Shown piece after piece: positions 29,005 to 64,000 of a stretch of 64,000 bases of DNA. Where the stretch lies: assembly GCA_022705945.1 (NCBI GenBank), contig JAKJDL010000001.1, positions 227,582-291,581 of the forward strand, read 5' to 3'. The notes beneath the pieces were generated by a model. The model saw only the letters and a program-made list of their open reading frames with translations, had not been told where the DNA came from and ran no database searches. The stretch is from Candidatus Omnitrophota bacterium. GTDB lineage: Bacteria; Omnitrophota; Omnitrophia; Omnitrophales; Aquincolibacteriaceae. Each line of letters opens with the position of its first letter. Positions within the stretch are counted from its first letter, which is position 1. The translations under genes were made by a program, and so were the position numbers.

Positions 29005-30060
29005 TCATACAAGGCAGGCATCACGGATCTCACAGAGGATATCTTCCATATTCTTCGTTAGAGACCAACCCGGATAATGTTTTGAAAATTTTGAGATATC
29101 GCTCACCCACCACATGTGATCGCCGACACGATTTTGAGGGTCATAAGCCGTTTTCATTTTCCGCCCCGTTATCTTTTCACAGAGCAGGATCGTTTCCTGC
29201 ATGGAGCCGTGGCTGAAACGGCTTCCGCCCATATTATATGCCTCTCCGCACCTCGGCTTTTGATAAAAATGGTAAAAGGCATTTACCAGATCGTAGCTGT
29301 GGAGATTGTCCCGCACCTGTTTCCCCTGATAGCCGAAGATTCTGTATTCGCGGCCCGTGACGGCGCATTTCATAAGATAAGCCAGATAACCGTGAAGTTC
29401 GGCCGCAGCGTGCCTCGGACCGGTCAAACACCCGCATCTGAAAGCTGCTGTCTTCATCCCGAAATACCGCCCGTATTCCTGGACCATGATGTCCGCGGCA
29501 ACCTTGGAAGCTCCGAAAATCGAGTGAGTGCAATGATCCAGCGACATGGTTTCGTCAATACCGTTTTGGAAATACGGATGGCCAGCATCAAGTTCCCACC
29601 GGGTTTCCAGTTCCCGAAGAGGAAGTCCGTTGGGGTTATCTCCATAAACTTTATTGGTCGATGTAAAAATAAAAACTGCGCCCGGACAAAAGTTCCGCGC
29701 GGCTTCCAAAAGGTTCAGCGTTCCCGCCGCATTGATGCCAAAATCCGTATGCGGTTCCCTAGCGGCCCAATCGTGGCTCGGCTGTGCCGCATTATGAATG
29801 ATCAACGTAATGTCACGTCCATACTCGGAGAAGATCCGATTTATTGCCTCCGCGTCTCTGACATCCTTGTCATAATCAGAAAATAACGGACATTCGGCCC
29901 GAAGTTCCGTCATGCAACGCTGAACGGAGCCCTCTTCGCCAAAAAAATACTTTCGCATGTTATTTTCGATCCCGACGGGTTTAAAACCTTTCGAGTGAAA
30001 AAAACGGACTGATTCCGATCCTATAAGACCACCCGCTCCCGTGATTAAAACAACCTTCAT
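29005..30060 (-). CDS. NAD-dependent sugar epimerase/dehydratase (extended SDR, CDP-paratose-2-epimerase-like).
   Basis: [29 protein letters not shown] and [12 protein letters not shown] motifs. Confidence 0.8.
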
Positions 30061-30097
30061 TTACCCTCCTCCCATCTGACCTTGTCAATCATGCAGG

Positions 30098-31198
30098 TCA
30101 AAGAAATATTTTTCGCGCTTCCGCTTCGTTCTCCCTCATCCAGAGAAAAATGTCTTCAAAAATCTCCTTTACCGCTCTGCGGGGCTTCCAGTCAAAAATT
30201 TCGCCTGTGTTTCCATTATCGGTTAAATACCAGATCATATCGGCCGGCCGACATTCCGGGATGCTGCCAACAGCCACCGCGTTCCCTGTTAATCGGGCGC
30301 AAAGGTTTGTCGCCTCAAAAAGGGAGAGGTTTGAAAAACGCGATCCCCCGGCGTTGAACACCTCTCCGTAAAACGGAGCTGCCCCGTTCATCAGGATCCG
30401 GGCCTGTGTCCCGATAAGGTCCGCAAGATCCTGAACATGTAAAAGGTCCCTGACCTGTTTTCCCGTCCCCCCAAAACCGATATAGTTCAACGGCCCTCTG
30501 AAGTAGTGCTTGGCCATCCAAAAAGCAAATACTCCCTGGTCCGCCTTCCCAAGCTGCCATGGCCCCGCCACAACTCCGCACCGATCGATGATCGCGGGCA
30601 ATTTATACTGGAAAGCGTATTCCTGAAGAATCAGTTCGGCTCCCAATTTGCTGGCTCCGTATAACGAACGGACACCCTGGAGAGGCATTTCGGCAGAAAC
30701 TCCGTCGGGATGAACACCCGGGCATCCCTCCAGAAGCTCGTACCTTGTTTCCGTCTCTTGATAGCGGCAGGCGTTGATTTTATCGTAGGGATATACCCTG
30801 GAAGTTGATAAAAAAATTACCGGTGTCCGACGTTCGCGGGCCCATTCAAAACAATTGATCGCTCCCTGCAGGTTCACATCAAGAAGATAGCGGGCGTCTT
30901 CTCCTTTTGTCCCCATGAGCACCGACGGCTCCGCACTGCATTCAATCAACAAATCATAGCGACCGGGAACCTTTCTCAGGTCTTCGGGAATCCGGACATC
31001 TCCGCGGATAAAACCGGCCCCGCAAGCGTTTACTCTTTGTTGCAATAAAATTTCCGATCCTCGCCGGCTCAGGTTGTCCAGGGCGGTCACTTCAAAACCC
31101 TGACAAGTTAAATCGACCGCCAGGTGAGATCCGATAAAGCCGCATCCCCCCGTAATCAGGATCCTTTTCTTTTTCATTTTCCCCTTTCCCTGATTCAA
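30098..31198 (-). CDS. NAD-dependent sugar epimerase (CDP-paratose 2-epimerase family). Paralog of the upstream gene.
   Basis: ILITGGCGFIGSHL, DNLSRRGS, ETETRY, YGASKL and GTGKQVRDLLH, the last matching the GNGKQVRDVLH I recall for RfbE. Confidence 0.85.
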   Translation of the reverse strand: MNQGKGKMKKKRILITGGCGFIGSHLAVDLTCQGFEVTALDNLSRRGSEILLQQRVNACGAGFIRGDVRIPEDLRKVPGRYDLLIECSAEPSVLMGTKGEDARYLLDVNLQGAINCFEWARERRTPVIFLSTSRVYPYDKINACRYQETETRYELLEGCPGVHPDGVSAEMPLQGVRSLYGASKLGAELILQEYAFQYKLPAIIDRCGVVAGPWQLGKADQGVFAFWMAKHYFRGPLNYIGFGGTGKQVRDLLHVQDLADLIGTQARILMNGAAPFYGEVFNAGGSRFSNLSLFEATNLCARLTGNAVAVGSIPECRPADMIWYLTDNGNTGEIFDWKPRRAVKEIFEDIFLWMRENEAEARKIFL

Positions 31199-31208
31199 AA
31201 AATGAGCT

Positions 31209-32054
31209 CTACCACTTCAAAAATTGAATTATCCGGTATTCGCCCGATATCAAAAGCCGTAAAAACCTGGCAAGCTCGTAAGGGGCTGTCAACAGATGCA
31301 AGCATAGCCTTTTAATGAAATTTTCGTTCTTTTGTATCATCAGCCGCCGATTACGGAAGCACAGGTATCGGCGCGCCGCGATATCCGTGTTGGACCCGTT
31401 GCCGCTATGAAAACAAACCGACTCAGGACAAAACTTCGTTCGCCATCCGGCGCGCCAAGCCCTCCAGGCCAGATCCACGTCTTCCACAAGAAAAAAAAAC
31501 CTTTCGTCAAAATAACCCGTGCTTTCCTTGAGACTGTCCAGCATGCGGCGACTGTAAAAAGCCGCTGCTGAACAGGGGCCTATGATTTTTTTTTCAACCT
31601 CCCCGGAGCAACTCCGGGGTTTCCCCCGGTTCAGGTCATAAAATCTTCGAAAAACCGTCAGGCGGATCCCGTGTGAATAGACCTCCCGGCCGGCCGCATT
31701 CAACACGTTGGGCTGGATCATCCCTGCAGTGCTTTCAAGCGCAGTTGCCGTTCTTGTAAAGTTTTTCAAAAAATTTTTTTCAAGAACAACATCACTGTCG
31801 AGAGAGAGCACCCAATCTCCCGACGAGGCTTCGATACCCTGATTTCTCGCCTTGCTGGCTCCGTAATTCCCTGGATTTTCGATTAATCGCACATCGGCAT
31901 AATTCTTTTTGACGAACTCTTTTGTCCCGTCCGACGAGGCATTATCGACCACAATAACTTCTTTTTCTGACACACCCTGATCAAACACGGAATCCAGACA
32001 AAAGCGTATAGATTCGATGCTGTTGTGTGTGAGAATCACTATAGAAAGCATCAT
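31209..32054 (-). CDS. Family 2 glycosyltransferase (soluble type).
   Basis: LSIVILTHN...VVDNASSDGT...NPGNYGASKARNQG...LDSDV corresponds to the DxD and ED GT-A motifs. Confidence 0.85.
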   Translation of the reverse strand: MMLSIVILTHNSIESIRFCLDSVFDQGVSEKEVIVVDNASSDGTKEFVKKNYADVRLIENPGNYGASKARNQGIEASSGDWVLSLDSDVVLEKNFLKNFTRTATALESTAGMIQPNVLNAAGREVYSHGIRLTVFRRFYDLNRGKPRSCSGEVEKKIIGPCSAAAFYSRRMLDSLKESTGYFDERFFFLVEDVDLAWRAWRAGWRTKFCPESVCFHSGNGSNTDIAARRYLCFRNRRLMIQKNENFIKRLCLHLLTAPYELARFLRLLISGEYRIIQFLKW

Positions 32055-33157
32055 GGGTGCCGGATCTCTTTCAAGATATCAGCCAGCCTTTCCCCCAGAA
32101 TCGTCAGGGAGTAATTCCGCTCCGCTTCGTTCCTGGCCGATCGTCCCATTTTTTTACGAAGGGTCTCATCCTCCGCCAAACAGCACATTCGTGACACAAA
32201 TTCAGCGCGACCTTCCGCCAAAAATCCGGTCTCGCCGTCACGAATCACCGCGGCGGCTTCTCCGCGGCGGCTTGAAATGGTCGCCTTCCCCATACTCATG
32301 TATTCGAAAAGCTTCGTAGGGCTTTTGGCCCGATTGAATTTTGTATCCTGGATCAGAGGCAAAAGTCCGACATCCGTTTGAGCGAGATATTCCGGAATTT
32401 TCTCCGGGGGAATCCACGGATAAATTTTGATCTTGTCCGCATATTTGTTTAATTTAACAGCCTCTTTGAATTGCTCGAAATATTTCCCCTCTCCGGCCAA
32501 ACTCAACCGCATATGCCCGTTCCGGGCGGCCGCCTCTGAAAAACAGTCCAGCAGAAAACAAAGATTCTCTGCCATTTCCGGGTGATAAGCGGTCCCGATC
32601 CAGGAATAAACAATTTCAGGCGATTTTCTTTCCTCCCGGAGACCGAAAAGCTCCGTATCCACCCCGGTCGGGAGATAATAAACATTGGGATTAAATCGCT
32701 TCAAATAATCTTTGAGGAATTTGCTGGCGGCAATACAAACGCTGGCTTTGCGGGAGACCACCCTCGTTAGCCATTCCATTTTGGAGCTTGGGTAAAACCC
32801 GAAATGGTAGACGGGATTTTCCCGGATATTCCAGTCGTCACAGTCAAAGACCACGGGATTGCGTTTAAAAAAAGAAACCAGGAGCGGCGCCAAGGTATGA
32901 TAATTCAGCCGCTGAAGGATGAAAACGGTATCGCGGGGTTCTTTTATAAGCCTGCCAAAGGCTTTTATATTAAGTCTAAGCTTTGCGAAGGCGGACATCT
33001 CGAGTTCTTTTTCGCCGCATTTCGCGCCAAGATCATCGGCAAAAGAAAAAACTTTCGCGGCAATCCCGCGCCTGCCCAACTCCCGGGCAAAATTATAGCA
33101 CCGCACTCTCGCCCCTGCGAGCTGGTAACCTTCGCGAGTGATAAATAGAACCTTCAT
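32051..33157 (-). CDS. Group 1 (GT4) glycosyltransferase.
   Basis: C-terminal KLFEYMSMGKATISSRRGEAAAVIRDGETGFL is the GT-B EX7E-like motif. There is a 4-nt overlap with the downstream GT2 gene. Confidence 0.85.
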   Translation of the reverse strand: MKVLFITREGYQLAGARVRCYNFARELGRRGIAAKVFSFADDLGAKCGEKELEMSAFAKLRLNIKAFGRLIKEPRDTVFILQRLNYHTLAPLLVSFFKRNPVVFDCDDWNIRENPVYHFGFYPSSKMEWLTRVVSRKASVCIAASKFLKDYLKRFNPNVYYLPTGVDTELFGLREERKSPEIVYSWIGTAYHPEMAENLCFLLDCFSEAAARNGHMRLSLAGEGKYFEQFKEAVKLNKYADKIKIYPWIPPEKIPEYLAQTDVGLLPLIQDTKFNRAKSPTKLFEYMSMGKATISSRRGEAAAVIRDGETGFLAEGRAEFVSRMCCLAEDETLRKKMGRSARNEAERNYSLTILGERLADILKEIRHP

Positions 33158-33389: not shown

Positions 33390-34556
33390 TTATCTAATTT
33401 TCTCGTATGCGGCCAATAAAGTCGCCGCAGTCTTGGGCCAATCGTATCTCAGTTCCGCTCTCTCACGGCTCGCTTTTTCCAGATTCTTCCTTAGTTCCGG
33501 ATCCTCAAGGGCAAGAAGGATGCCTTCGGCCATCGCATTGTGATCCCCTGGGGAAGTCAGGATGCCCACTCCCCCGAGCATTTTCCGGACCTCTCCCACG
33601 TCACTCGCCACGATCGCCTTCCCCATCGCCATGTATTCGACGATCTTCAAAGGACTTTTGCATCGCGTCACAAGCGTATCTTTAAAAGGGGCCACACATA
33701 CCGTAGCGGCGGCAATATAAAAGGGTATTTCGGAGTGAGGAACCGACCCGGTAAAGATTACCCGGGACCCCAGACCGAGTTCGTGAACCATCCGACGCAA
33801 TTTCCACTCCATAAACCCCTCTCCGACAATAAAAAATCTGGTGTTCGGACGCTTGTGCAGAATGATATTAGCGGCTTTAATGAATAAATCCACGTATTGG
33901 GCCCCGTGAAGTTGACCGACATAAAGAACGATTTCTTCGTGATTCAGAAGTTCGTGTTTTTTTCTTACGGCTTCCCCCGAGATCGACGGGTTGAATTTCT
34001 CCATATCCGCCCCGACCGGGGTTTCCGACAGGCGCACTCCCCGCACACCGAACCTTTCGGCTAAACTTTTTAGATGTCCGCTCGCGCAGGAAACGGAATC
34101 CGCCAGGACCGGAAGCGTCCGCTCGAGAACTTTGAACGAGAATCCGATAAACCTCGAATGAAGTCCCCTCCCGCAGGACTCAAACCAGATCTTTTCTTCC
34201 CAATCATCCCAGTCGTAATGAAGCGGTTTCTTTTTAATATACGCCGCGATCACGGCGGGAACCGAAGCATAATGGTGGCATTTCTGAAAGTGTACGATAT
34301 CCGCCCATTCGCATAAGGAGAGAAGAGTCTTAATATTTTTAAAAAAGACGAGGGGGGAAGGATTTCTATCGAGCGGGACAAGCTCCACCGCGTTGATTTG
34401 TCCGGGGAGGTGTTTTTTGTTTAACGCCAGGGGAAAATAACAGAGCTTCACCCAATGACCCTTTTTGGTAAATTCGTGAGCGATACTCGTCACCCTTATG
34501 GTCCACGGCTCGGATTTATCAAGCGGATCATGGGGGTGGATCATTAAAATTTTCAT
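33390..34556 (-). CDS. Group 1 (GT4) glycosyltransferase.
   Basis: PLKIVEYMAMGKAIVASDVGEVRKMLGGVGILT. Confidence 0.85.
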   Translation of the reverse strand: MKILMIHPHDPLDKSEPWTIRVTSIAHEFTKKGHWVKLCYFPLALNKKHLPGQINAVELVPLDRNPSPLVFFKNIKTLLSLCEWADIVHFQKCHHYASVPAVIAAYIKKKPLHYDWDDWEEKIWFESCGRGLHSRFIGFSFKVLERTLPVLADSVSCASGHLKSLAERFGVRGVRLSETPVGADMEKFNPSISGEAVRKKHELLNHEEIVLYVGQLHGAQYVDLFIKAANIILHKRPNTRFFIVGEGFMEWKLRRMVHELGLGSRVIFTGSVPHSEIPFYIAAATVCVAPFKDTLVTRCKSPLKIVEYMAMGKAIVASDVGEVRKMLGGVGILTSPGDHNAMAEGILLALEDPELRKNLEKASRERAELRYDWPKTAATLLAAYEKIR

Positions 34557-34580
34557 TTTATTGATAGCACTCCTGACTTC

Positions 34581-35549
34581 TTAACCGATTATTTGAGAGT
34601 TTATTAAGGCCTTAAAAATAATTCCGGCAATGACCCGGTGTCCTTCATAAGTCGGATGCATCTCATCTACAAAATAAGAATCCTCTTCGAGCGCGGGCCG
34701 CGTATCGATAAAAACAACACCCTCATTTGCCTCTGCCAGGTTCTTCATAATCTCAACATACCGCACAATCGCATCCGGAGAGCGATGGGCTTCAGTGATC
34801 AATAAAATTTTAAAATGCCGCCTTTCTCCCAACGCAATGATTTCCCGGAGATTGTTTTCAAAATCTTCAGGAGGAACTCTTTGTTTTGGTTTATTGAGCA
34901 AACGGAACAACATTTCATCGAACCAATTATAGATTCTCAGATTTTGCAAAAACCGTCTCAGATTTAACCCGATAAGTTCCCACTCTCCTCGCGGCCGGAG
35001 GCTTTCCTGCTTGAGCCATTCCGAATATTCTTTATCAGATAAGGTGATGTGGATTTCACCGTTATGGTGGCTGTCATTTGCGCCAACGCAAAGAGTAACC
35101 AGATCCGGGCTGAAATTCAAAAGCCGCTGTTTAAGGTACATCAAAACCTGAAAAGTTGAATAACCTCCAACCCCGGCATTAATTACTTCAAATTTATTTT
35201 TAGAAAATTGGCGATTTAGCATTGTCTCAAGAACTGCCGGATAAATTTTTTCCGTGTCCTCCAAAGGCCATCCCCACGTCGAGGATCCGCCGAGACACAA
35301 AATCCTAAAAACCCCTTGTGGTTTTTTTTCTTCATGAAAAACGCCCCTGAATTCCATTGCAGCATGGTGAGCAATGCCCGATGGATTATGTTGCGGCGGT
35401 TCCGGCCGCCAAAAAACCGAGTGATCCAGCAACGACCCTTGACGGTATTCGGGAGAAAAATAACTGTCCCACGGAGACAGGCGCAAGGCAAACTCCAACA
35501 ACGAAAATAACACTATGGCGGGGATCAGAGAAAACAATATTCTTTTCAT
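34581..35549 (-). CDS. SGNH/GDSL-family hydrolase, N-terminally membrane-anchored. Possible polysaccharide O-acyl esterase or acyltransferase.
   Basis: TM anchor MKRILFSLIPAIVLFSLLEFA. Block I ILCLGGSSTWG and block III CVGANDSHH are present. Confidence 0.65.
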   Translation of the reverse strand: MKRILFSLIPAIVLFSLLEFALRLSPWDSYFSPEYRQGSLLDHSVFWRPEPPQHNPSGIAHHAAMEFRGVFHEEKKPQGVFRILCLGGSSTWGWPLEDTEKIYPAVLETMLNRQFSKNKFEVINAGVGGYSTFQVLMYLKQRLLNFSPDLVTLCVGANDSHHNGEIHITLSDKEYSEWLKQESLRPRGEWELIGLNLRRFLQNLRIYNWFDEMLFRLLNKPKQRVPPEDFENNLREIIALGERRHFKILLITEAHRSPDAIVRYVEIMKNLAEANEGVVFIDTRPALEEDSYFVDEMHPTYEGHRVIAGIIFKALINSQIIG

Positions 35550-37281: not shown

Positions 37282-38181
37282 TTAGACAACAGCCGCTTCA
37301 CATCGTTTACAAAGAAAACTACCCGGGGAACCTTTTTTGCCGTCCCTCTGGTCCCGGACATCTTGGTATTTCGAAGAATTCCAGATCGTTTCGATGCTCT
37401 TTTCATTAAGATCCCCCAAAACGACCTCCCTTCTCCAATCCATGCAGCATAAGATAACTTTCCCGTCTTCGGTTACATGCATCATTTCGTTTGCCCAAAT
37501 ACTGGCGCAACCTTTGACCTGATGATGCGTAACATGAGGGATTGTTTTTACATTTCCTGCACGGCTGATCGGCTTTTCGAAAAAGCTAATTCTTTCTACA
37601 CCCTGTTTTCGCCAAAACTTAACTGCTTCATCTTTTTCTTCCGGGTTTAAATGGTCGTGTCCTAAAAATGTAATCATAACGTAATCTTTGATGTTCTTAT
37701 TCGACTTAACCCGGTCCAAAAAGCTCAGGACCCTTTCAATTGTCTTGGCGGCATCGATTCCCATAGCTTCTTTTATCGTTTCATGCCTGATCCCGTGCAA
37801 GCTTATCCCGATCCAATCTAGCCTGGAAGCAACCAATTGATCCGCCAAGGACGGGGTCAGAAGACTCCCGTTGGTGAGGATATGGACACAAGACCACGGA
37901 ACCTTAGTTTTCGCATAATCAATTCGTTCAATCAGAAAAGGGTCCGTTAAAGGATCATTGTTCATGTAGAGGATCATTCGCTCAATGTTCTTGTGGGCCG
38001 CACATTCATCTATGATTTTGCGGTAAAGTTTACCTTCCATCACCCTGGGAGGAAAAAGCTCCTTAATTTCCCGAAAGGGACAAAAAATACAGGCAGCATT
38101 GCACATGGATGTCGTTTGGATGGAAAACTTGTTAGGAAAATCTCTGGTCTGATCCATAAATTCTTGTGTAAATTTTTTCAT
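37282..38181 (-). CDS. Radical SAM/SPASM-domain protein. Paralog of the modules in the adjacent 1473-aa protein.
   Basis: TTSMCNAACIFCP (CxxxCxxC). The C-terminal Cys-rich region is GCASIW...ILCCMDW...GDLNEKSIETIWNSSKYQDVR...CKRCE. Confidence 0.8.
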   Translation of the reverse strand: MKKFTQEFMDQTRDFPNKFSIQTTSMCNAACIFCPFREIKELFPPRVMEGKLYRKIIDECAAHKNIERMILYMNNDPLTDPFLIERIDYAKTKVPWSCVHILTNGSLLTPSLADQLVASRLDWIGISLHGIRHETIKEAMGIDAAKTIERVLSFLDRVKSNKNIKDYVMITFLGHDHLNPEEKDEAVKFWRKQGVERISFFEKPISRAGNVKTIPHVTHHQVKGCASIWANEMMHVTEDGKVILCCMDWRREVVLGDLNEKSIETIWNSSKYQDVRDQRDGKKGSPGSFLCKRCEAAVV

Positions 38182-52363: not shown

Positions 52364-52364
52364 T

Positions 52365-56467: not shown

Positions 56468-57872
56468 CGATTAGATCGCATCCATGGTGTCGTTTCGGCC
56501 CCAGCACGAACAAAAAAGTCCGCCCGAGATACAGTAAAACAGAAAAGAAAATTCGAACCGCTTGAGGGAGCCTCCTCCCCAGAAAAAGGAGGTTTTGAAA
56601 GAAAATAACAGGGTGCAGATAAAACCTTAAATGCAAAAGCAGGGCCCATCCTCTGGTTTTCTCCCATTTCAAAAGCATCTCTTCTTTTCCGTAAAACTCC
56701 TTAAAAAAAGAAGATCCTTCCAACATCAGGAACTTATAGAAAAAAACATAATGAGAACGCGCTTTAATTGCCAAAGCCAGGTTTTGTTCATCTGTGTCCT
56801 GCTCCTCACCCGGAAGTCCGAGAATAAATTGAAGTTTGACCATGATGTTGGCTTGCTTGGCCTTTCGGACAATCTCGTTCAGCAAAACCGGACTAACCGG
56901 CGTCCTTTGACTCATCCGAAGAGCCCGGGCACTCACCGATTGAACCCCCAGAACAAGTCCCACACAGCCGGCATTCCCCATCAGCTCCAATATCCCGGGA
57001 TCTTCCAGGCTCGTAAAATGCATCATACAAGCCCAGCGGATATCATGCTTACCGGCAATCATTTTTTCACAAAAACTCCGGAGCCACTCCCGGTTTAATC
57101 CAAAAACATCGTCGTGAAAACTGATGAATTTGATCTGGTAAAGCTTCTTGCATTCCTCTATCTCTCGCATAACGTTTGCAACGCTTCGCGATCGGTATCG
57201 GTTGCCCCAAAAATTACAGGAAGCGCAGTAAGCGCAGGAGAATGGACAGCCGCGCGAGGCAACCATGTTGATAAAAGGCCTTGCGCTATCAAACCACTGA
57301 AAATTGAACGATTTTTCCACCTGTTCTTTATCCCGCTTGGGAAACGGCAACGTATCTAGGTCCTGAATCAGGTCTTGAGGAGGAGCATGTTTAATCCCAC
57401 CATGCTCAAAATAAGAGACTCCTTTCAAATCGCCTTTACTCCTTTTCCCCTCAAAATAATCCGCGAGATCAGCGATCGTTCGCTCCCCTTCTCCATGGCA
57501 TACAAAATCACAGCCGCCCGAAAGATATTCATCGGGACAAAAACATCCCGGGCCGCCGACAATAATGGGGAGATCTTTTAATTCTTTCTTAATCTCTTGT
57601 ATAGAGCGAACGACCTTTCCCCCGACTGAATAAGCTGAATAAAAACCCACAAACAACCATGGGGTTTTTTTTAAACGCAAGACCAGTTCCTCCATGGAAA
57701 ATGAAACATAGCTCTGGTCCAGCAATTCAGTCTTGATGCCTTTTTCTTCCAAAACAGCACAAAGGTATTGAAGTCCTAATTTAGGCGTTGTTTTCAGTTC
57801 CTTGGTTGGCCGGATGCCGAAAAAATCATCCGATTCGGGGGCCAGATAAACTAAGAGGGCTCTTTTGTTCAT
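56445..57872 (-). CDS. Cobalamin-binding radical SAM protein (class B) with a hydrophobic C-terminal tail.
   Basis: B12-binding-like N-terminus LLVYLAP...GLQYLCAVL. Radical SAM motif ASRGCPFSCAYC. Confidence 0.85.
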   Translation of the reverse strand: MNKRALLVYLAPESDDFFGIRPTKELKTTPKLGLQYLCAVLEEKGIKTELLDQSYVSFSMEELVLRLKKTPWLFVGFYSAYSVGGKVVRSIQEIKKELKDLPIIVGGPGCFCPDEYLSGGCDFVCHGEGERTIADLADYFEGKRSKGDLKGVSYFEHGGIKHAPPQDLIQDLDTLPFPKRDKEQVEKSFNFQWFDSARPFINMVASRGCPFSCAYCASCNFWGNRYRSRSVANVMREIEECKKLYQIKFISFHDDVFGLNREWLRSFCEKMIAGKHDIRWACMMHFTSLEDPGILELMGNAGCVGLVLGVQSVSARALRMSQRTPVSPVLLNEIVRKAKQANIMVKLQFILGLPGEEQDTDEQNLALAIKARSHYVFFYKFLMLEGSSFFKEFYGKEEMLLKWEKTRGWALLLHLRFYLHPVIFFQNLLFLGRRLPQAVRIFFSVLLYLGRTFLFVLGPKRHHGCDLIDDRKNPS

Positions 57873-57875
57873 TGG

Positions 57876-60008
57876 TTATTTAAAACCGGTTTCAACATAA
57901 CGTTTTTTCTTTCTCAAAACCATAAAGAGAGTGGCGGTCAAAACTAAAAAAACGGAGGAGATCAAAACCCCGGCCGCAAACGAGGACGGAGTATACCAAA
58001 GTCGCACGAAGTTGCGGCCCGGTCGCAAAAAAACAGCCCGGAAAGCCCCGTTTGCACGATAAATGTTTTCTTCCTTGCCGTTCACTCGAACCTTCCAGCC
58101 CGGATAAAAGAGATCCGAAATAACCAGAAAAGAGGGCTGTTTGACAGCAACTTCAAGATCCGCTTTCTGTGAAGTTTCCCTGATAACCTTTACCCGGTTA
58201 TCACTCAGGGATTTATCCGTTTCTTTATCGGGAAGCTCCGTAGGCATCGGGGGTTTTTCTATCGTGACCGTCGTAGTGAAATCAATATCGCCGTCCGCGA
58301 TCCTCTCGACAGCCTCCCGATAATTTTCTACCGCTATCGCATAAGGCGCCACCCGGAATCTGTCAAGAGCGCCGGGCACCTCATAGACCAGGATATCCCC
58401 GAAAGCGGCTGTCTGCTTTAACAAAGGATTATCGATAACCCTGTCTGACAGAATATATTTGACGCTCGCCAATCTTAAAAAGGTCAAATCGCCTTCAGGG
58501 TCCATTCGATCTTTAACCGCATCATACTCCGGCAAAGGAAATTCAATAAGCCCCGTGGCACTTTTGATTCTAAATCGAATATTATTGTCAGCCTCGAGAA
58601 GATCCACCATATGCCTGTCTTGATCGCGAACGGAGAATATTCTTTGATCCGCCAATTGTTGAGATAAAAAACCGGTTACCGGGGGATAGAAATCGGCTGA
58701 GCGTTTATCGGGAGATCTGCTCCGGAAAAAATCGAAAAAATGGTTCGAAAAAAACCAAAGCTCGGACACCGTCAAAACAATCACCGCCACACCAAAAAGT
58801 TTGAGTTTGGGTTTCATTCCCCCTTTCTTGGCGGAAGCTTTTATCCAGATATCCAGCCCCAGACCGGCCAACACAGCTAAAATAAAGGTGGCAATATAAA
58901 GGGTTCGATAACTTCGTCCTATGTATTTTATGAAAAAAAGCGGCTCAAGAGCATACGTAAAAAATGGATTGTTTTCGCCCAAAGCTAAAAAAAACGCTAT
59001 GGCGCACAGCGATAGAAAAGTGCAGATAAGTCCGTTTCTGATTTTTAAAACCGCCCACAGGCATAAAAACAACGGCGCGGTCCCCAGGTACATGCAAGTC
59101 TGCATATCAAAACCATCCGGGAGCCTACCGTTGGTCCAGGGGTAAAAAAAAGTCAAAAGGGCGTGAGGAGACATGGAATTGTCAAAGATTAATTCGCTGT
59201 CGGTCCCGAGCGACCGGCTTGAAAGCCGGAACAACTCAAGTGTGGGGAGATTCTGAACGGCTGAAAGGCCGAGGCCGATCAGAAGCGCCGTGCCCAAAAA
59301 AGACAGATGCCGCAAAAAATCTTTTTTGGGTCTTTGAAACAGCCCCCTTATAAACAAATAAAGCCCCGCGAAAAAAATGGAATAAACGGCAAAGGAGTAA
59401 TACCCCGAGAGAAGCTGCAATCCAAAAACGCACCCGAGCATTAACGCGCTGATTGGGTTTTTGTCTTTAAGATATTTTTCGATTAAAAAAAAGGCCGCGG
59501 GTAGCCAAGGCATGGGACGCACACGAGCAAGGCTGCTTATGTGAAAAACCACAAAAGAGCTTAAAATCAATACCGCTGCCGAGAAAAAAGCGCTGATTTT
59601 GCGGGCATCCAAGCTTTTGGTATAAAGATAAGTGAACACCCCGATCAGAAAAATGTGCAGGAATAATGATGCGTTGTGCGCAACAGCAGCGGGAAAACAC
59701 AAGAAAAGCAAGATGTCGATGGGATAAAAACTTCCGGGTTGCGCATTGGCCAACAAGGGATACCCGCAATAAATATACGGATTCCAAAGCGGGAAGACAC
59801 CGCTTTTCAAAAATTCGGCACTTAACCCAACCCGGCCATAAGGAGCATCGATTCCGTCATGCAGCAAGCTGATCCCGGCGATCAACCCGCCTTGGCTCAG
59901 GATGGTTTGAAAAAAAAACGGCAGGATAATGAAGCCGAGCATACTCAAAAAGACCAGATCTCTTTTATCAATTTTCACAAGTTTCGCCCGCCGGTTTTTG
60001 TAATACAA
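57876..60008 (-). CDS. YfhO-like polytopic membrane protein, paralog 3.
   Basis: FPLWNPYIYCGYPLLANAQPGSFYP. Multi-TM with a C-terminal TM. Confidence 0.55.
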   Translation of the reverse strand: MYYKNRRAKLVKIDKRDLVFLSMLGFIILPFFFQTILSQGGLIAGISLLHDGIDAPYGRVGLSAEFLKSGVFPLWNPYIYCGYPLLANAQPGSFYPIDILLFLCFPAAVAHNASLFLHIFLIGVFTYLYTKSLDARKISAFFSAAVLILSSFVVFHISSLARVRPMPWLPAAFFLIEKYLKDKNPISALMLGCVFGLQLLSGYYSFAVYSIFFAGLYLFIRGLFQRPKKDFLRHLSFLGTALLIGLGLSAVQNLPTLELFRLSSRSLGTDSELIFDNSMSPHALLTFFYPWTNGRLPDGFDMQTCMYLGTAPLFLCLWAVLKIRNGLICTFLSLCAIAFFLALGENNPFFTYALEPLFFIKYIGRSYRTLYIATFILAVLAGLGLDIWIKASAKKGGMKPKLKLFGVAVIVLTVSELWFFSNHFFDFFRSRSPDKRSADFYPPVTGFLSQQLADQRIFSVRDQDRHMVDLLEADNNIRFRIKSATGLIEFPLPEYDAVKDRMDPEGDLTFLRLASVKYILSDRVIDNPLLKQTAAFGDILVYEVPGALDRFRVAPYAIAVENYREAVERIADGDIDFTTTVTIEKPPMPTELPDKETDKSLSDNRVKVIRETSQKADLEVAVKQPSFLVISDLFYPGWKVRVNGKEENIYRANGAFRAVFLRPGRNFVRLWYTPSSFAAGVLISSVFLVLTATLFMVLRKKKRYVETGFK

Positions 60009-60184: not shown

Positions 60185-61174
60185 TTACCTGAAAAACCTT
60201 TTAAGCCGGTTATACACCGCATTAAGGTTCCCCTTGAAAAAATAATTAACTTCGACCCTCTCGGCGCACCAGCAGAAATCACAGGTCATGGGTTTCGTTT
60301 TAAGAAACAAATCCCTGAGATCTTCCTGAAAACAATTTCCGGCAATGTTCGGCCGGGGACAAACTCCGCAAAGCATGACATTGCCGCGAGGATCAATGCG
60401 TCGGAATATAAACTCGCCCGCGCAAGAAAGGGGGGCGGGATCCGGCCATAATTTAAGGTGCCGCAGTCCCGCAACAGAATTACCTATATTCGCACCTTTT
60501 TTTTTCAGTGCGATCAAATAATCGAGCATTTCCCGATAGTCTGTGATAAAAGGATCCACAAGGGTCTTCCCCTGTCCTCTGAGACGGTTTTGGAAAACGG
60601 GCTGAAAGGTAACGTCGCTTTTGTAGTTCGATGCAAATTTCAACATAAAATCAATATACCGGGATTGAACGTTGCCGGCCGACAAAACCGTCAGGAAACC
60701 TGTTTTAACGGAGTGGCGGGCCGCCGCCTCCGCGGCATCGACCACTCTTTTGAAAGACCCTGCCCCGCGCAACGGATCATTCACCTCCTCGGGGCCATCC
60801 AAACTTAATGTTAACTTCCCAACCGGCCGGATCTCTTTGATTCGTAAAGGAACCAGGGCTCCGTTTGAATTCAAGCGGGTCAGAATACCCTCTTGCGAAC
60901 AACAATCCAGTATTCTGCCAATGTCTTCTCTCAGAAGGGGCTCCCCTCCCGTAAAGGATATTACCTTGACCCCCAGACGAGCCATCGTCCTGATCAGGAA
61001 GAGGACCTTCTCTTCCCGGATCTCTTCCGATACAGAAACCTGATGCTCGTTACAATAAACACAACGGTAATTACACCTCTCGGTAATAATCCAGCTGACC
61101 GCCAAAGGAATTCTTCTCCTCAAAACCTTGGCTAAAATCACCCCCCCGAGCAGACCTAAAGTGTTTTTTGTCAT
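60185..61174 (-). CDS. Radical SAM/SPASM-domain protein.
   Basis: LAVSWIITERCNYRCVYC, FTGGEPLLRED and C-terminal CAGE...CGVCPRPN...CDFCWC. Confidence 0.8.
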   Translation of the reverse strand: MTKNTLGLLGGVILAKVLRRRIPLAVSWIITERCNYRCVYCNEHQVSVSEEIREEKVLFLIRTMARLGVKVISFTGGEPLLREDIGRILDCCSQEGILTRLNSNGALVPLRIKEIRPVGKLTLSLDGPEEVNDPLRGAGSFKRVVDAAEAAARHSVKTGFLTVLSAGNVQSRYIDFMLKFASNYKSDVTFQPVFQNRLRGQGKTLVDPFITDYREMLDYLIALKKKGANIGNSVAGLRHLKLWPDPAPLSCAGEFIFRRIDPRGNVMLCGVCPRPNIAGNCFQEDLRDLFLKTKPMTCDFCWCAERVEVNYFFKGNLNAVYNRLKRFFR

Positions 61175-62697
61175 GGCGTTCTCTTGATTTTTATAAACGA
61201 AAACGCTCTTGAGAGCAAATATCCGGTTCTTTCGAGGTAGTTTTTAAAATAAACCCAAAATCGCGGATCACGATTTTTAATTCCTATAAAAATTTTCAGG
61301 CAATCCACCAAAAAATCGGGCAAAAAACGGGCTCTTAGGTATCTTTTTTCTTCAGAAAGCCATCTCACGGTATTTTCTGATAATAGAGGCAGTATCGAAT
61401 AAAGCTTTTTTAAAGCCTCTCCCGCCTTCTTTACGTCCTCATCCCCAAGATCCGCCTGACGAAAAAAACCATCTGTTCTTCCTTGCTCTATTTCCCGGAC
61501 ATCATCTTCGGAAAGTGTTTTTTCACGGAGAGCGATATCTACGATCTCAAGCTTGGGGAAATAACAAAGATTAAAGCATTTGATCCTGTTTAAACGCTTA
61601 TAGCGTTTAAAGCGGGAAGCGGCGCGAGCCGCGTCATCGGTATTTTCTCCGGGAAGATCAAACATCAGATCGGCGTCAAACCATATCCCGGCTTCATCGC
61701 ACAAGCGGAAAACCTTCCATATCTGGTCATCGGTAACAGGCCGATTAAGAAACCTTTCCCGAACGCGGCGATTCATCGACTGAATTCCGAAGTTCACCGC
61801 GTAGCAATTACTCTCCCGAAGCTCAATCGCTATTTCCCGATCAAAAGATTCCAGGTGTCCCATACACTTGAACGGCACTCCGATACGGGTCCGGTATTCT
61901 TTCAAAAAAGCCTTCATCCACTCCTTGTTATAATGAAAAATATTATCAAAAAAAATAATCCTCTCATATCGATACCGATGTTTCATGAGCTCAAGCTCCG
62001 AAATCATCGATCCGACACTTCTTTGACGGAAATATTTTGGCCCGTAAAACCTGTTCATAAAGCTCTCACAGCAGTAAGTGCAGCTGTAAGGACATCCCCG
62101 CGAGGTCATGACAAGAAAATCGTCGCGATAATTTATATGTCGCTCAAAAAGAGCTTTGTCGGGATAAGGGAGTAAATCCAGATTGGTTATTAACCTGTCG
62201 GAAATCTTATTCTTGATGACTTTTCCGTCTTTTTTATAAAAAACATTATCGATATCGCAGTTTTTTGCGGGTTTTTGAAGGAAGCGAACCAATTCAACAA
62301 AGGTTTTCTCGGATTCGCCGGCAACAACATAGTCAACGGCATCCGCCCCGGCAACAATCTCCGGTACCAGGGTGGCGTGGCTTCCTCCCACCACAATCTT
62401 GGTTTCTATATGCTCCTTTATCGATCGCGCAAAGCGCTTGATCCAATCAAAATTGGCCGTGTAAGCCGAAAAGGCTACAACATCGGGTTTTTCCCTGCAT
62501 ATTTGAGACAACATCTCTTTTTCACGGCTAAATGCTCTTTCCAGCCACGGGTTGTAAAGAGTGTTATCTTGCTTACTGAAATATCCGGGGTCATAGCTCA
62601 ACAAAACCTCGACATCCAGACCGCTTTGTTTTAGAACAGCCGACAAATACTCAATCCCCAGATGCTCCCTGCCGAGATGGCAAAAAAGAACCTTCAC
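61171..62697 (-). CDS. Cobalamin-binding radical SAM protein (class B).
   Basis: B12-binding-like N-terminus and TSRGCPYSCTYC. There are 4-nt overlaps with both neighbours. Confidence 0.85.
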   Translation of the reverse strand: MKVLFCHLGREHLGIEYLSAVLKQSGLDVEVLLSYDPGYFSKQDNTLYNPWLERAFSREKEMLSQICREKPDVVAFSAYTANFDWIKRFARSIKEHIETKIVVGGSHATLVPEIVAGADAVDYVVAGESEKTFVELVRFLQKPAKNCDIDNVFYKKDGKVIKNKISDRLITNLDLLPYPDKALFERHINYRDDFLVMTSRGCPYSCTYCCESFMNRFYGPKYFRQRSVGSMISELELMKHRYRYERIIFFDNIFHYNKEWMKAFLKEYRTRIGVPFKCMGHLESFDREIAIELRESNCYAVNFGIQSMNRRVRERFLNRPVTDDQIWKVFRLCDEAGIWFDADLMFDLPGENTDDAARAASRFKRYKRLNRIKCFNLCYFPKLEIVDIALREKTLSEDDVREIEQGRTDGFFRQADLGDEDVKKAGEALKKLYSILPLLSENTVRWLSEEKRYLRARFLPDFLVDCLKIFIGIKNRDPRFWVYFKNYLERTGYLLSRAFSFIKIKRTP

Positions 62698-63686
62698 CTT
62701 AATCCCCCCCCTTCAGGGTTCCGGCTCATAAGAGCTTTTAAAAAAAAAGGTAATGGGAGCAGTCCGGCTATTGCCGGGAGAAGATAACAGACAAGGGAAT
62801 ATAAAAGACCGCAACTCAGCAATGCTTCATTTGAAGCGTTGCCGGAAAAAAAATACAGAACCGCCAGTTCACGAGTCCCGAGACCAAACAAGGTGAAGGG
62901 CAAGTTTGTAATAAACATGATGGCGGGAACCGCGAATAATGCTTTTGCGAACGGGATATCGATCGCCAGCGTTCGCGCCAAAGAAAAGAATATGATTACT
63001 TCTATCAGTTCGATTAATATCGCGAGCCCCAGGATTTTCAAAATCTTTCTCTTCTCGCTCCGAAAAAACCGGGCGACCGCCGTCAACCGCTCTAAAAACC
63101 CCCGAACTCGGTTATTGGTCCCATGTTGTTTTAAAAATCTTACGGCCAACACTAACGTTCCGGCCATCACGGTTAAAACAGCCGCGCCTTTTAAAGCGGC
63201 GGCATTTCCGTTAAACATGAGTCCGGTCAAAATAATCATTAAAAGCACAACGGCTGCCAGGAACATACTGATCATTATCGTTTGAAGCGATTGGGTAACG
63301 GGGACAGACCGTTTCCATTTCAGATATCCGCACACGAAAAACTCGCCTGCCTTCAGGGGAAACACTCCCTTGAGAGGAGCGGCTGCCATTCTTATAAACA
63401 TCGCTTCACCAAAGGAAATGGACGGGCCGACCGCCTTGAGTATCCACCTAAACTCAAGCGGCACAAGGATGGCGGCCGAGAAGAGAGAGAGAACTGCTAT
63501 GCTTCCGAGTTTCGTCCGGCTCACATCCTCAATCAGGCAAAGCACTTGGGTTGCATCATTTTTTTTAAAGAAAAAAATAAAAAAAAGCCCCGTTAAAAAA
63601 ACCGTTAAAAAAAACCGCAGGTTGTTTTGAATCCGCTTTTTATTGTTGGGCAAGGCTGCTTTCACCGCCGCGACAGACGAGCACAT
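62694..63686 (-). CDS. Flippase-like / lysylphosphatidylglycerol-synthase-TM-domain (UPF0104) membrane protein.
   Basis: ~8 TM helices with the pattern typical of LPG_synthase_TM-type proteins, which often accompany GT2 enzymes. Confidence 0.6.
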   Translation of the reverse strand: MCSSVAAVKAALPNNKKRIQNNLRFFLTVFLTGLFFIFFFKKNDATQVLCLIEDVSRTKLGSIAVLSLFSAAILVPLEFRWILKAVGPSISFGEAMFIRMAAAPLKGVFPLKAGEFFVCGYLKWKRSVPVTQSLQTIMISMFLAAVVLLMIILTGLMFNGNAAALKGAAVLTVMAGTLVLAVRFLKQHGTNNRVRGFLERLTAVARFFRSEKRKILKILGLAILIELIEVIIFFSLARTLAIDIPFAKALFAVPAIMFITNLPFTLFGLGTRELAVLYFFSGNASNEALLSCGLLYSLVCYLLPAIAGLLPLPFFLKALMSRNPEGGGLR

Positions 63687-64000
63687 TGAACACCTTTAAA
63701 AACTGTTTCATGGTCAACTTTAAAAGACCGTGCTTTAAAATAATCCTTAAGAAAAGAAAATGCCCTCGGATCCGTCCACCGGCTTGTTATCACCCAAACG
63801 TCTTCGGGTTTCCACGGCAGACGACGGACTTCCTGCATGGAAACTTCAAAGTCTTTTACAAAAAACAACTCACTGTGCTTCTGGTTTTCCCTGAGCCCGA
63901 CAAAAAACATTCTGGGCTTTTCGATTGAAACCGTGTTCTGATCTTCCGGACCGTCAACAATCCTTAAATTTTTCAAAAAATCCGGGCCTCTAAAATAATA
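63662..64000 (-). CDS. Hypothetical protein, partial. The ORF stays open to the window edge, and the apparent start at 63976 is TTG.
   Basis: An open frame continues upstream with no stop before position 64000. No family recognised. Confidence 0.3.
   Translation of the reverse strand, partial: YYFRGPDFLKNLRIVDGPEDQNTVSIEKPRMFFVGLRENQKHSELFFVKDFEVSMQEVRRLPWKPEDVWVITSRWTDPRAFSFLKDYFKARSFKVDHETVFKGVQCARLSRR

Follow-up and report, generated by a model that had tools for sequence, protein, structure and literature searches.

A probable O-antigen-like Wzm/Wzt locus of Omnitrophota with conserved radical SAM genes whose enzymes probably act on carbohydrate

Our analyses of a 64,000-nt stretch of DNA from an uncultured Candidatus Omnitrophota bacterium (the window, to which all positions refer) indicate that its 29005–64000 range is probably an O-antigen-like, Wzm/Wzt-dependent surface-glycan locus, in which a conserved block of radical SAM (rSAM) enzymes acts on carbohydrate. 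With ten rSAM domains, several of them fused to sugar-binding or sugar-transferring domains, the locus points to a radical chemistry of surface glycans that has not yet been described. In agreement with a previous reading made from the letters of the DNA (the sequence-only reading), which knew of no characterised Wzm/Wzt locus of this composition, we found in the published literature neither a characterised Wzm/Wzt locus with rSAM enzymes nor a description of this type of rSAM–glycan locus.

All ORFs in 29005–64000 lie on the minus strand. The sequence-only reading had proposed more than 23 co-directional, translationally coupled genes; the common direction stands, as do overlaps of −4 nt or similar at most junctions, but the count is 23 complete genes and one partial gene, the 3′ end of a PMT_2 gene. 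Five intergenic gaps exceed 100 bp (60009–60184, 53127–53331, 48454–48597, 33158–33389 and 28854–29004), and since the gaps of 144–232 bp could harbour internal promoters, a single transcript is predicted only. The genes for Wzt, an 800-aa B12-binding rSAM, a triple rSAM protein and a 299-aa rSAM are joined by stop-to-start overlaps, and the gene junctions indicate translational coupling through wzm-wzt-rSAM-rSAM-rSAM. A terminator scan found no strong terminator inside the locus, including between wzt and the rSAM genes, the first on the minus strand lying at 26214–26179. Thus, no strong terminator splits the rSAM genes from wzm/wzt into the separate operon that had been considered. The export operon measures about 38 kb, and the GC content of the locus (44–48%) is lower than that of the housekeeping flank (51–55%).

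Pfam and NCBIfam searches bore out the canonical glycan machinery of the sequence-only reading, namely Wzm, Wzt, two GT2 and two GT4 glycosyltransferases, two extended SDRs, a DegT protein, a SAM methyltransferase and an SGNH protein, and added an LPG_synthase_TM/flippase-like protein and three YfhO-like GT-C proteins. A GT2 gene kept in other Omnitrophota loci (48598..49545; likely ATG at 49545, 4-nt overlap) is followed by the ABC-2 permease gene wzm (47662..48453; PF01061, 3e-13; NF050109) and by wzt (44915–47665, minus strand), the nucleotide-binding domain of which comprises residues 1–230 (46976..47665; PF00005, 2.8e-21; TagH/Wzt models, 155–199 bits). Beyond the core rSAM genes lie those for an SGNH/GDSL hydrolase with an N-terminal hydrophobic segment (34581..35549), the 388-aa GT4_388 (33390..34556), the 368-aa GT4_368 (32051..33157), the 281-aa GT2_281 (31209..32054) and, by Pfam and PDB relatives, two CDP-tyvelose-2-epimerase-like SDRs (30098..31198 and 29005..30060), both closest in the PDB to the CDP-tyvelose 2-epimerases 1orr/9rl0 (E 1e-31 to 1e-34). 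By homology, a WecA-like phosphoglycosyltransferase, a Wzy_C ligase-like gene and a GT9 gene adjoin the window edge. The initiating transferase, predicted to lie outside the window, is this WecA-like enzyme, just past the 3′ edge, where there is also a fifth B12-binding rSAM (502 aa; best NCBIfam model HpnJ, 162 bits against a cutoff of 577.6).

The range contains ten rSAM domains, each with an intact CxxxCxxC motif. The previously reported split into four B12-binding and six SPASM/twitch domains holds: a B12-binding domain is found on the 508-, 475-, 800- and 545-aa proteins (scoring below the Pfam gathering cutoff on the 800-aa protein), and the SPASM/twitch domains are three stand-alone (329, 361 and 299 aa) and three fused in a 1473-aa protein, the triple rSAM. 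However, only the 329-aa protein has the full 7-Cys SPASM pattern. With just 4–5 C-terminal Cys each, the 299-aa protein and the three fused units are, judged on these residues, twitch/BtrN-like, with one predicted auxiliary cluster as in BtrN, rather than full SPASM enzymes. Unit 1 of the triple rSAM (residues 1–495; 41069..42553) consists of an rSAM core, a Cys-rich insert (C306/C337/C340/C347) and a twitch domain, and is followed by unit 2 (about residues 705–1090; 39284..40441) and unit 3 (about residues 1105–1473; 38132..39241). Next come the 299-aa rSAM/twitch protein (37282..38181), to which the orthologue of the next gene is fused in other Omnitrophota, and the 545-aa B12-binding rSAM (35605..37242). 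The rSAM proteins lack transmembrane (TM) segments, save for C-terminal anchors on two B12-binding enzymes (475 and 545 aa).

The closest relatives of these enzymes include several sugar-directed rSAMs. Unit 1 has BlsE, DesII and BtrN among its structural neighbours, and by sequence the top PDB match is AprD4 for the 800-aa protein (42550..44952; 2.5e-20) and OxsB for the 545-aa protein; BtrN, AprD4, DesII, BlsE, GenK and OxsB all act on sugars. Identity to the aminoglycoside and nucleoside-sugar rSAMs is only 10–20%, with family thresholds unmet. Unlike those enzymes, the locus rSAMs are fused to each other, to carbohydrate-binding modules and, in relatives, to GT4, and their genes belong to an operon for envelope-glycan export, not to an antibiotic cluster. 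The NCBIfam matches of the locus proteins all fall far under the equivalog cutoffs, so that no reaction can be assigned from them, and none of these rSAM families has, to our knowledge, a characterised member.

Three independent domain fusions support a tie between the rSAMs and carbohydrate. First, GT4_388 is across phyla the partner of, or fused to, a twitch rSAM: 33 of the 49 related loci have GT4_388-type genes, and fusions of such a gene to an rSAM of the unit 2 type are found in L022, in L031 and in the representatives of at least 130 protein clusters from other phyla, unit 2 being the orthologue of this GT4-fused rSAM. Second, the 800-aa rSAM carries, after an N-terminal helical hairpin, a galactose-mutarotase-like beta-supersandwich (residues 67–273; nt 44134–44754), and the same sugar-binding fold makes up the C-terminal extension of Wzt, as about three tandem beta domains (44915..46888; BLASTP 3e-9; HMM full E 6.1e-25; copies include residues 545–692 and 709–823 by HMM). 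This domain is rare (236 matches among 1.84 billion representatives), and its partner was a Wzt-type ATPase or an rSAM enzyme in all nine matches checked; the Wzt architecture recurs in P0379, P0384, P0386, P0389 and P0394. Third, a CBM6/CBM35-like beta-sandwich module is embedded in the triple rSAM (residues 530–652; 40598..40966). From their folds, the mutarotase-like and CBM-like domains would be expected to bind sugars.

The core, wzm-wzt-B12-rSAM(800 aa)-triple rSAM-rSAM-B12-rSAM-GT4-GT4-GT2, is kept across the phylum Omnitrophota: the triple rSAM and the 800-aa rSAM each have over 100 full-length orthologues, and six loci (L001, L004, L006–L008 and L014) share the core gene order. In relatives the cassette adjoins lpxI, lpxB, a Kdo transferase gene or a canonical Wzt with Wzt_C. 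Like the pathways of Escherichia coli O9a and Klebsiella O2a/O12 (WecA, cytoplasmic glycosyltransferases, Wzm/Wzt, WaaL), ABC-dependent O-antigen systems, the locus has an ABC-2 permease, a Wzt extended at its C-terminus, GT2 and GT4 enzymes of the cytoplasm and nearby WecA-like, Wzy_C and GT9 genes, and it too is low in GC and strain-variable. It differs in the six translationally coupled rSAM domains that directly follow wzt, and in the Wzt extension, for which assignment to the PF14524 (Wzt_C) jelly-roll was rejected in favour of the mutarotase-like supersandwich domains.

From homology, undecaprenyl phosphate would be primed by the WecA-like enzyme outside the window, and a lipid-linked glycan would be built in the cytoplasm by GT4_388, GT4_368, GT2_281 and GT2_383. 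The core rSAM set (the HpnJ/AprD4-like 800-aa enzyme, the three fused twitch rSAMs, the 299-aa twitch rSAM and the 545-aa B12 enzyme) may then tailor sugar residues at the cytoplasmic face by H-atom-abstraction chemistry, held on the glycan by their own putative sugar-binding modules. As candidate reactions, the B12 enzymes could carry out C-methylation, the BtrN/BlsE/DesII-like twitch units could dehydrogenate or epimerise sugars, and the HpnJ/AprD4-like enzyme could deoxygenate them or rearrange their rings. Wzt would recognise the glycan through its roughly three mutarotase-like copies and export it with Wzm. In the periplasm, four GT-C enzymes (the three YfhO-like proteins and PMT_2) could attach side groups from polyprenyl-phosphate donors, which the rSAMs, DegT protein and methyltransferase of the variable arm (49542–64000) may modify, and the Wzy_C protein could finally ligate the product to lipid A-core or protein.

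A possible but rather unlikely alternative is that the rSAMs act on activated monomers (NDP-sugars or polyprenyl-phosphate sugars), rare donors being made anaerobically and then polymerised, with no modification of the assembled glycan. The SDR pair is co-conserved with the cassette, a GT4–rSAM fusion would allow channelling of donor sugars, the TM anchors on two B12-rSAMs would suit lipid-linked monosaccharides, and the nucleotide-binding rSAMs viperin, MoaA, BlsE and DesII are among the closest cores. However, the sugar-binding domain of the 800-aa rSAM is also found on the Wzt C-terminus, the region with which known systems read the completed polymer, the triple rSAM contains a module of the CBM6/35 type, which typically binds glycan chains, and the conserved core lacks a nucleotidyltransferase.

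That the product is instead a small, secreted, aminoglycoside-like pseudo-oligosaccharide leaving through an ABC-2 pump is very unlikely. The toolkits are alike in their BtrN-like twitch rSAM, AprD4-like rSAM, B12-rSAMs, DegT and MshA/BshA-like GT4, and L055 has carbamoyltransferases, the enzyme family of TobZ. Yet a WecA-like primer, a Wzy_C ligase-like gene, a heptosyltransferase-like GT9 and four GT-C enzymes lie in or beside the locus, Pfam found no 2-deoxy-scyllo-inosose synthase or inositol-phosphate synthase among the locus proteins, the relatives lie next to genes for lipid A and Kdo or to a canonical transporter with Wzt_C, and conservation is phylum-wide, as for a housekeeping envelope locus.

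Highly improbable, too, is modification (methylation, cyclisation or cross-linking) of a membrane lipid or polyprenyl/hopanoid-type carrier moved by the ABC-2 transporter. HpnJ of hopanoid side-chain biosynthesis is the top NCBIfam model of the 800-aa enzyme (233 bits, far under the cutoff of 577.6), as it is of the 502-aa one, weaker matches are to HpnR and a "lipid biosynthesis B12-binding/radical SAM" model, GDGT-MAS is among the PDB matches, and two B12-rSAMs have membrane anchors. Lipid rSAMs do occur in Omnitrophota MAGs, among them homologues of Mss and Hbs. However, all lipid-family matches are far under family cutoffs, and HpnJ itself works on a sugar, the glucosamine head group, to form a cyclitol ether. 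Moreover, neither the locus nor its relatives contain squalene, polyprenyl, fatty-acid or ether-lipid synthesis genes, the locus lacks hopanoid genes, and the fused domains, including the extra N-terminal mutarotase-like domain that sets the 800-aa enzyme apart from HpnJ, are carbohydrate-binding folds and GT4.

A glycosylated RiPP, a peptide matured by the SPASM/twitch and B12 rSAMs and then glycosylated and exported, is extremely improbable: although such rSAMs are known above all for maturing RiPPs, NCBIfam gives sub-threshold matches to C-methyltransferases of RiPPs and to sactipeptide maturases, SkfB and SuiB score high as structural matches and one gap holds a 42-aa ORF (60042–60170), the small gap ORFs are not conserved outside this strain in comparison with related loci, none of the 24 proteins has a significant Pfam match to PqqD/RRE, peptidase, YcaO or lanthipeptide-type families, the rSAM motif of unit 1 starts at residue 34 and so leaves no space for an N-terminal RRE, the exporter is an ABC-2 Wzm/Wzt pair rather than a peptidase-containing ABC transporter, and the fusion partners are GT4 and carbohydrate-binding folds. 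Thus, the sequence-only reading was upheld in seeing no precursor peptide, and every test run favoured its polysaccharide or glycolipid, radically modified before Wzm/Wzt export, over a RiPP. The proteusin/polytheonamide pathway (C-methyltransferases PoyB/C, epimerase PoyD) shares the logic of a simple polymer remodelled by many rSAMs of one operon, but there the polymer is a leader-bearing ribosomal peptide, whereas here the attached domains are carbohydrate-directed.

Within the probable surface-glycan locus, the variable arm was not conserved in the other genomes compared, and each of its GT-C genes adjoins its own rSAM gene. It begins with the 3′ end of the PMT_2 (ArnT-like GT-C) gene, which runs off the window (63662..64000; 539 aa in L002), the 330-aa LPG_synthase_TM/flippase-like membrane protein (62694..63686; PF03706, 3.5e-27; TIGR00374; seven predicted TM segments), the 508-aa B12-binding rSAM (61171..62697; PF02310, 3.7e-19; PF04055, 4.3e-16; motif CPYSCTYC) and the 329-aa rSAM, whose SPASM-type C-terminus is seen in its Cys pattern and SPASM-family NCBIfam alignments (60185..61174; PF04055, 7.1e-22). 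There follow a 710-aa YfhO-like GT-C membrane glycosyltransferase (57876..60008; PF09586, 1.1e-14), the 475-aa B12-binding rSAM identified by Pfam/NCBIfam, with its C-terminal TM helix (56445..57872), a 643-aa YfhO-like protein (54536..56467; PF09586, 27.1 bits), a 411-aa DegT/DnrJ/EryC1 sugar aminotransferase (53332..54567; PF01041, 2.4e-64), a class I SAM methyltransferase (52365..53126 by Pfam; the start may be 53024), a radical SAM/SPASM-like paralogue of the 329-aa rSAM with 35% identity (51359..52363; ORF listed from 52444, likely ATG at 52363) and a 611-aa YfhO-like protein (49542..51377; PF09586 weak, 22.1 bits). Each of the three YfhO-like proteins has nine TM segments, and only the 710-aa protein passes the Pfam gathering score of 28.5 bits; the 611-aa protein shares 29% identity, across 91% of its length, with another YfhO-like protein of the locus. 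The arm resembles the three-component periplasmic glycosylation systems GtrA/GtrB/GtrC, CsbB/GtcA/YfhO and ArnC/ArnT in having YfhO-like/PMT_2 GT-C proteins (two of the three YfhO matches being below the Pfam cutoff), GT2 and a flippase-like protein. It differs from them in that an LPG_synthase_TM-type protein replaces the GtrA-family flippase and each GT-C gene is paired with an rSAM gene.

Every sizeable ORF within the glycan locus (window 29005-64000) lies on the minus strand, so that transcription enters at the window's 3′ edge and proceeds towards lower coordinates. Pfam and NCBIfam assignments revealed, in this direction, the 3′ end of a PMT_2 gene, an LPG_synthase_TM/flippase-like protein, a B12-binding radical SAM enzyme (B12-rSAM; 508 aa), an rSAM/SPASM protein (329 aa) and a YfhO-like protein (710 aa), followed by a B12-rSAM (475 aa), a second YfhO-like protein (643 aa), a DegT aminotransferase, a SAM methyltransferase, an rSAM (361 aa), a third YfhO-like protein (611 aa), a GT2, Wzm and Wzt (916 aa). 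Next come an rSAM with a B12 domain (800 aa; 42550-44952), a 1473-aa protein made of three rSAM+SPASM units (the triple rSAM), an rSAM/SPASM protein (299 aa), a B12-rSAM (545 aa), an SGNH protein, two GT4s, a GT2 and two extended SDRs. The SDRs had been taken for CDP-paratose-2-epimerase-like enzymes in the sequence-only reading, and indeed the closest solved relatives of both are CDP-tyvelose 2-epimerases. With plausible start codons assumed, most junctions are 4-nt overlaps or spacings of a few tens of bases. Gaps longer than 100 bp occur at five positions, and no gap in the locus contains a strong terminator-like site. Genes overlap at the wzm-wzt, wzt-rSAM800, rSAM800-triple rSAM and triple rSAM-rSAM299 junctions. 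Thus, the split that would have set the radical SAM genes apart from wzm/wzt is absent, in line with the proposal that they form one unit. The GC content of the locus (44-48%) is lower than that of the housekeeping flank (51-55%), as is usual for surface-glycan loci. An Rfam search gave no riboswitch, cobalamin and SAM types included.

The first convincing minus-strand terminator (26214-26179; 15-bp stem), the only strong one in the region, follows a gene for a short autotransporter beta-domain protein (359 aa; 26258-27337, minus strand). Between this gene and the glycan genes are two co-directional, family-less proteins with predicted TM segments (27554-28222 and 28203-28853), which may be part of the same transcript.

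A Candidatus Omnitrophica MAG encodes a protein with 100% identity to the triple rSAM. A contig of GCA_002069035.1 carries the window's 3′ part and, upstream of the window edge, genes for a GT4, a WecA/MraY-family phosphoglycosyl transferase and an FAD amine-oxidase-like protein, together with an oppositely oriented Wzy_C (ligase-like) gene, a gene resembling GT9 heptosyltransferases, a fifth B12-rSAM gene and the PMT_2 GT-C gene. The priming enzyme matches PF00953 (WecA model, 91 bits) and, with the Wzy_C gene, lies within 8 kb past the window edge (related contig L002). Hence a candidate initiating phosphoglycosyltransferase, which the sequence-only reading had placed outside the window, was found there, and the GT9, fifth B12-rSAM and PMT_2 genes confirm that the locus runs on past the 3′ edge. 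The co-directional run probably starts at the GT9 gene, which gives 26 genes over about 38 kb. Because Wzy_C proteins include O-antigen ligases as well as protein O-oligosaccharyltransferases, the final glycan acceptor could be lipid A-core or a protein.

The exporter genes were identifiable at family level. Wzm exceeds the gathering score of PF01061 (3e-13), with just 55 bits for the Wzm/RfbD equivalog model against a cutoff of 380. Wzt, whose gene adjoins wzm with a 4-nt overlap, matches PF00005 (2.8e-21) and scores 155-199 bits with the TagH and Wzt models, under their equivalog cutoffs. The carbohydrate-binding domain Wzt_C occurs only in a subset of Wzm/Wzt systems, those with capped glycans. 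This domain (PF14524) is present in the relative L054; in Wzt itself it gave no Pfam match even at E<=5, and a search of PDB sequences with the Wzt C-terminus returned no match. In place of PF14524, the C-terminal extension (44915-46888) carries about three mutarotase-like domains, which amount to a new type of putative recognition domain in Wzt. With them, Wzt would read the glycan product.

These domains link the exporter to the radical SAM enzymes. Residues 1 to 340 of the 800-aa rSAM are Pfam-less yet conserved among orthologues, and in an AlphaFold model of this N terminus (54 sequences, pLDDT 84.7) an all-beta domain comes after a helical hairpin. The all-beta domain recurs in the Wzt C-terminal extension (BLASTP E 3e-9); a profile HMM of it matched Wzt with a full E of 6e-25, placing copies at residues 545-692 and 709-823, plus a weaker match at 332-419. 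The domain is rare, with 236 phmmer matches in an exhaustive search of 1.84 billion representative proteins, many of which have two to five repeats. Pfam scans of nine domain-bearing matches found ABC_tran with C-terminal repeats in five, rSAM or B12-rSAM fusions in three and no match in one, indicating that this rare domain is common to exporter ATPases and radical SAM enzymes. A second model, of triple rSAM residues 1-720 (pLDDT 84.3), shows an rSAM barrel, a Cys-rich insert, a twitch domain, a long helix and a 120-residue beta-sandwich. The last corresponds to a CBM6/CBM35-like module (residues 530-652), for which PDB sequences yielded just a non-significant match, to a polysaccharide-binding protein. 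The models thus show that the radical SAM enzymes carry two predicted carbohydrate-binding folds, one of them in common with Wzt. Pfam at E<=5 gave no match for the Wzt C-terminus, the 800-aa rSAM N-terminus, the triple-rSAM linker or the two downstream family-less proteins. The internal repeats of Wzt and of the triple rSAM escaped BLASTP self-comparison and emerged only from profile and tblastn comparisons.

The CxxxCxxC motif is kept in all ten rSAM domains of the locus. Auxiliary-cluster domains are present in the six proteins or units earlier described as SPASM/twitch, but that description needs refinement. PF13186 matches three stretches of the 1473-aa protein and one of the 299-aa protein; these four have four to five C-terminal cysteines, a twitch-like, BtrN-type pattern, whereas the 329-aa protein alone shows the seven-Cys SPASM pattern, and the 361-aa protein has six. 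For BtrN the match, over the twitch region, reached only E 1.6e-7. Among the B12-rSAMs, only the 800-aa rSAM falls short of the PF02310 gathering score (25.6 bits; cutoff 32.1), the 508-, 475- and 545-aa proteins being above it. Pairwise identities of 22-29% argue that the four are not recent duplicates. The 800-aa rSAM reached 233 bits with the HpnJ model (cutoff 577.6) and 92.5 bits with the AprD4 family model (cutoff 500), and its best PDB match was AprD4 (E 2.5e-20), an enzyme that has a B12-type domain and is not known to use cobalamin. No NCBIfam equivalog claimed any rSAM of the locus, the B12-rSAMs included. A C-terminal TM helix is predicted for two of the four, the 475-aa protein (56445-57872, minus strand; residues 438-459) and the 545-aa protein (35605-37242, minus strand; residues 509-532), and from these predictions both would sit at the membrane.

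Unit 1 of the triple rSAM contains a Cys-rich beta insert (residues 277-363; window about 41465-41725). Its residues C306, C337, C340 and C347 are invariant across 57 orthologues, and the insert may form a further site for a metal or Fe-S cluster, one not shared by units 2 and 3. In some Omnitrophota (Candidatus Saelkia, Candidatus Kaelpia), a fused B12-binding rSAM lengthens the triple rSAM to about 1920 aa (P0062, P0064, P0066, P0077 and P0084), and 1150-1285-aa variants of the 800-aa rSAM family bear an extra rSAM/SPASM unit.

Both the full-length triple rSAM (40-58% identity) and the 800-aa rSAM (42-57% identity) have more than 100 cluster representatives, and those that are named are almost all Omnitrophota. 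The order in other Omnitrophota is wzm, long wzt, a roughly 780-aa B12-rSAM, the triple rSAM, a 299-type rSAM fused to a 545-type B12-rSAM, GT4, GT4 and GT2. The part upstream of wzm (49542-64000), with three YfhO-like genes, two SPASM rSAMs, two B12-rSAMs, DegT and the methyltransferase, is not conserved and looks like a strain-variable arm. Three-component glycosylation of the YfhO/GT-C kind combines a GT-C enzyme with a GT2 for polyprenyl-P-sugars and a small flippase. Here, one of the YfhO-like genes matches over the cutoff and two under it; the GT2 is not GtrB-specific, and the flippase-like protein belongs to the LPG_synthase_TM family rather than GtrA. Every GT-C gene of this arm adjoins an rSAM gene, and the arm would decorate the exported chain via GT-C enzymes. 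An RlmN-like rRNA methyltransferase gene is found near the glycan locus both in the window (18101-19159, minus strand) and in a distant Omnitrophota genome (L001, 933-1955), which suggests that the chromosomal position of the locus is conserved.

A scan of species-representative genomes identified relatives of the twitch rSAM units at 49 loci, in MAGs labelled Myxococcota, Desulfobacterota, Wallbacteria, Cloacimonadota, Thermoanaerobaculia, some "Rickettsiales" and, in two cases, archaea. In Wallbacteria and Cloacimonadota the three units are separate genes, each closest to a different unit of the Omnitrophota protein; the 1473-aa protein is therefore a fusion of three distinct paralogues. A counterpart of the GT4 encoded at 33390-34556, 40-68% identical, is present at 33 of the 49 loci, and at many of these it is fused in one reading frame with a unit-2-type rSAM. 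A database search with one such fusion as query returned at least 130 cluster representatives of the GT4+rSAM+SPASM architecture (800-950 aa), all metagenomic and named "glycosyltransferase" at most. The three fusion neighborhoods are envelope-glycan contexts: the first contains wzm and a canonical Wzt with a Wzt_C domain, the second lpxI, lpxB, an MsbA-like transporter, PMT_2 and a Kdo transferase, and the third a Wzy_C gene. All three hold more twitch rSAMs and giant multi-rSAM fusions, and two also hold SDRs. The giant fusions, single polypeptides of 2074 to 2742 aa with at least four rSAM/SPASM/B12-rSAM domains, adjoin the GT4-rSAM genes (contigs L054, 15989-22451; L055, 19835-22718; and L056, 14000-20224).

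The related cassette on L055 also includes NodU/CmcH-type carbamoyltransferase genes (12747-19838), one of which carries a fused rSAM/SPASM domain, beside genes for lipid A and Kdo. Twitch rSAMs and B12-rSAMs of these types are also arrayed on two archaeal contigs, L037 (labelled a Methanosarcinales MAG) and L042 (labelled a Woesearchaeota MAG), with a GT2 at the end and without a GT4 partner.

Taken together, domain content, coupling to wzt, phylum-wide conservation, the GT4-rSAM fusions and the carbohydrate-binding folds make an ABC-transporter-dependent surface-glycan pathway, in which radical SAM enzymes tailor the carbohydrate before export, the best-supported reading of the locus, as had been suggested from sequence alone. 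Tailoring would take place at the cytoplasmic face with the lipid-linked polymer as substrate, through C-methylation by the B12 enzymes, dehydrogenation or epimerization by the twitch units and, to judge from its HpnJ and AprD4 matches, deoxygenation or ring rearrangement by the 800-aa enzyme. The main rival is that the radical SAM enzymes make unusual activated sugars instead of altering the polymer; structural neighbors that bind nucleotides and the co-conservation of NDP-sugar epimerase-like SDRs are in its favor, but the binding modules, being of polymer type, weigh against it. Within the polymer-tailoring reading, we tentatively propose a bolder scheme, more doubtful than probable: a glycan counterpart of proteusin logic, in which a simple undecaprenyl-linked polymer is rewritten post-assembly by up to eleven rSAM enzymes tethered by their own carbohydrate-binding modules. 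Possible reactions would range from C-methylation, deoxygenation and epimerization at sugar carbons that are not activated to ring contraction yielding carbasugars. The tandem mutarotase-like domains of Wzt would act as a checkpoint that passes the finished product only, and such chemistry would have its ancient core in the GT4-twitch-rSAM pair, which occurs as a fusion in many uncultured anaerobic phyla as well as in some archaea.

A peptide (RiPP) substrate is very unlikely, as the exporter is of ABC-2 type and the claim that no precursor-peptide gene is visible stood up: the gaps hold only non-conserved ORFs of 12-58 aa, without counterparts outside the same strain among 53 related loci. 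RRE/PqqD, leader peptidase, peptidase-ABC, YcaO and lanthipeptide families gave no significant Pfam match in 24 proteins, and the rSAM motif of unit 1 lies at residue 34. The small ORFs of the five larger gaps were rejected as precursor candidates, being kept in the same strain only. They include a 42-aa ORF (60042-60170, minus strand), in whose gap a shorter 39-aa gene is called on the related contig L003, and a likewise unconserved 45-aa ORF with a hydrophobic segment (33221-33358, minus strand).

Whereas the export pathway is classical, neither the rSAM tailoring block nor the recognition domain of Wzt is. Full-text searches of the literature outside subscription journals returned no description of an rSAM in a Wzm/Wzt locus, of the GT4-rSAM fusion family or of this Omnitrophota locus, consistent with the earlier remark that no characterized Wzm/Wzt locus has such a composition. 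The rSAM genes mentioned in the Xanthomonas papers returned are unrelated, and the Omnitrophota papers returned deal with giant proteins, rSAMs of lipid metabolism and polysaccharide cassettes that vary, but not with this locus.

Several features make the locus a starting point: six to eleven rSAM domains tied to a Wzm/Wzt exporter, a core conserved phylum-wide in Omnitrophota, rSAM fusions to GT4 and to two kinds of carbohydrate-binding module, and a cassette found repeatedly among uncultured anaerobes of many lineages. The substrates of known sugar-directed rSAMs are small antibiotic intermediates, and to our knowledge polysaccharides have hardly been explored as targets of radical SAM chemistry; the locus would open sugar modifications beyond the reach of ordinary acid-base enzymology. 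Omnitrophota are ultra-small, often host-dependent bacteria, about whose envelope we know of no other information. The roughly 850-aa GT4-rSAM fusion proteins (e.g., P0224 and P0189) are clonable targets for finding the chemistry.

Elsewhere in the window, Pfam at E<=1e-5 matched nothing in a 576-aa ORF (15881-17611, plus strand). Positions 23231-25010 (minus strand) encode a complete restriction endonuclease of the EcoRI family (PF02963, 2.2e-128) paired with an N6/N4 DNA methylase; this stretch is low in GC (46-47%), adjoins tRNA-Ser(TGA) at 25243-25332 and may be a small mobile island.
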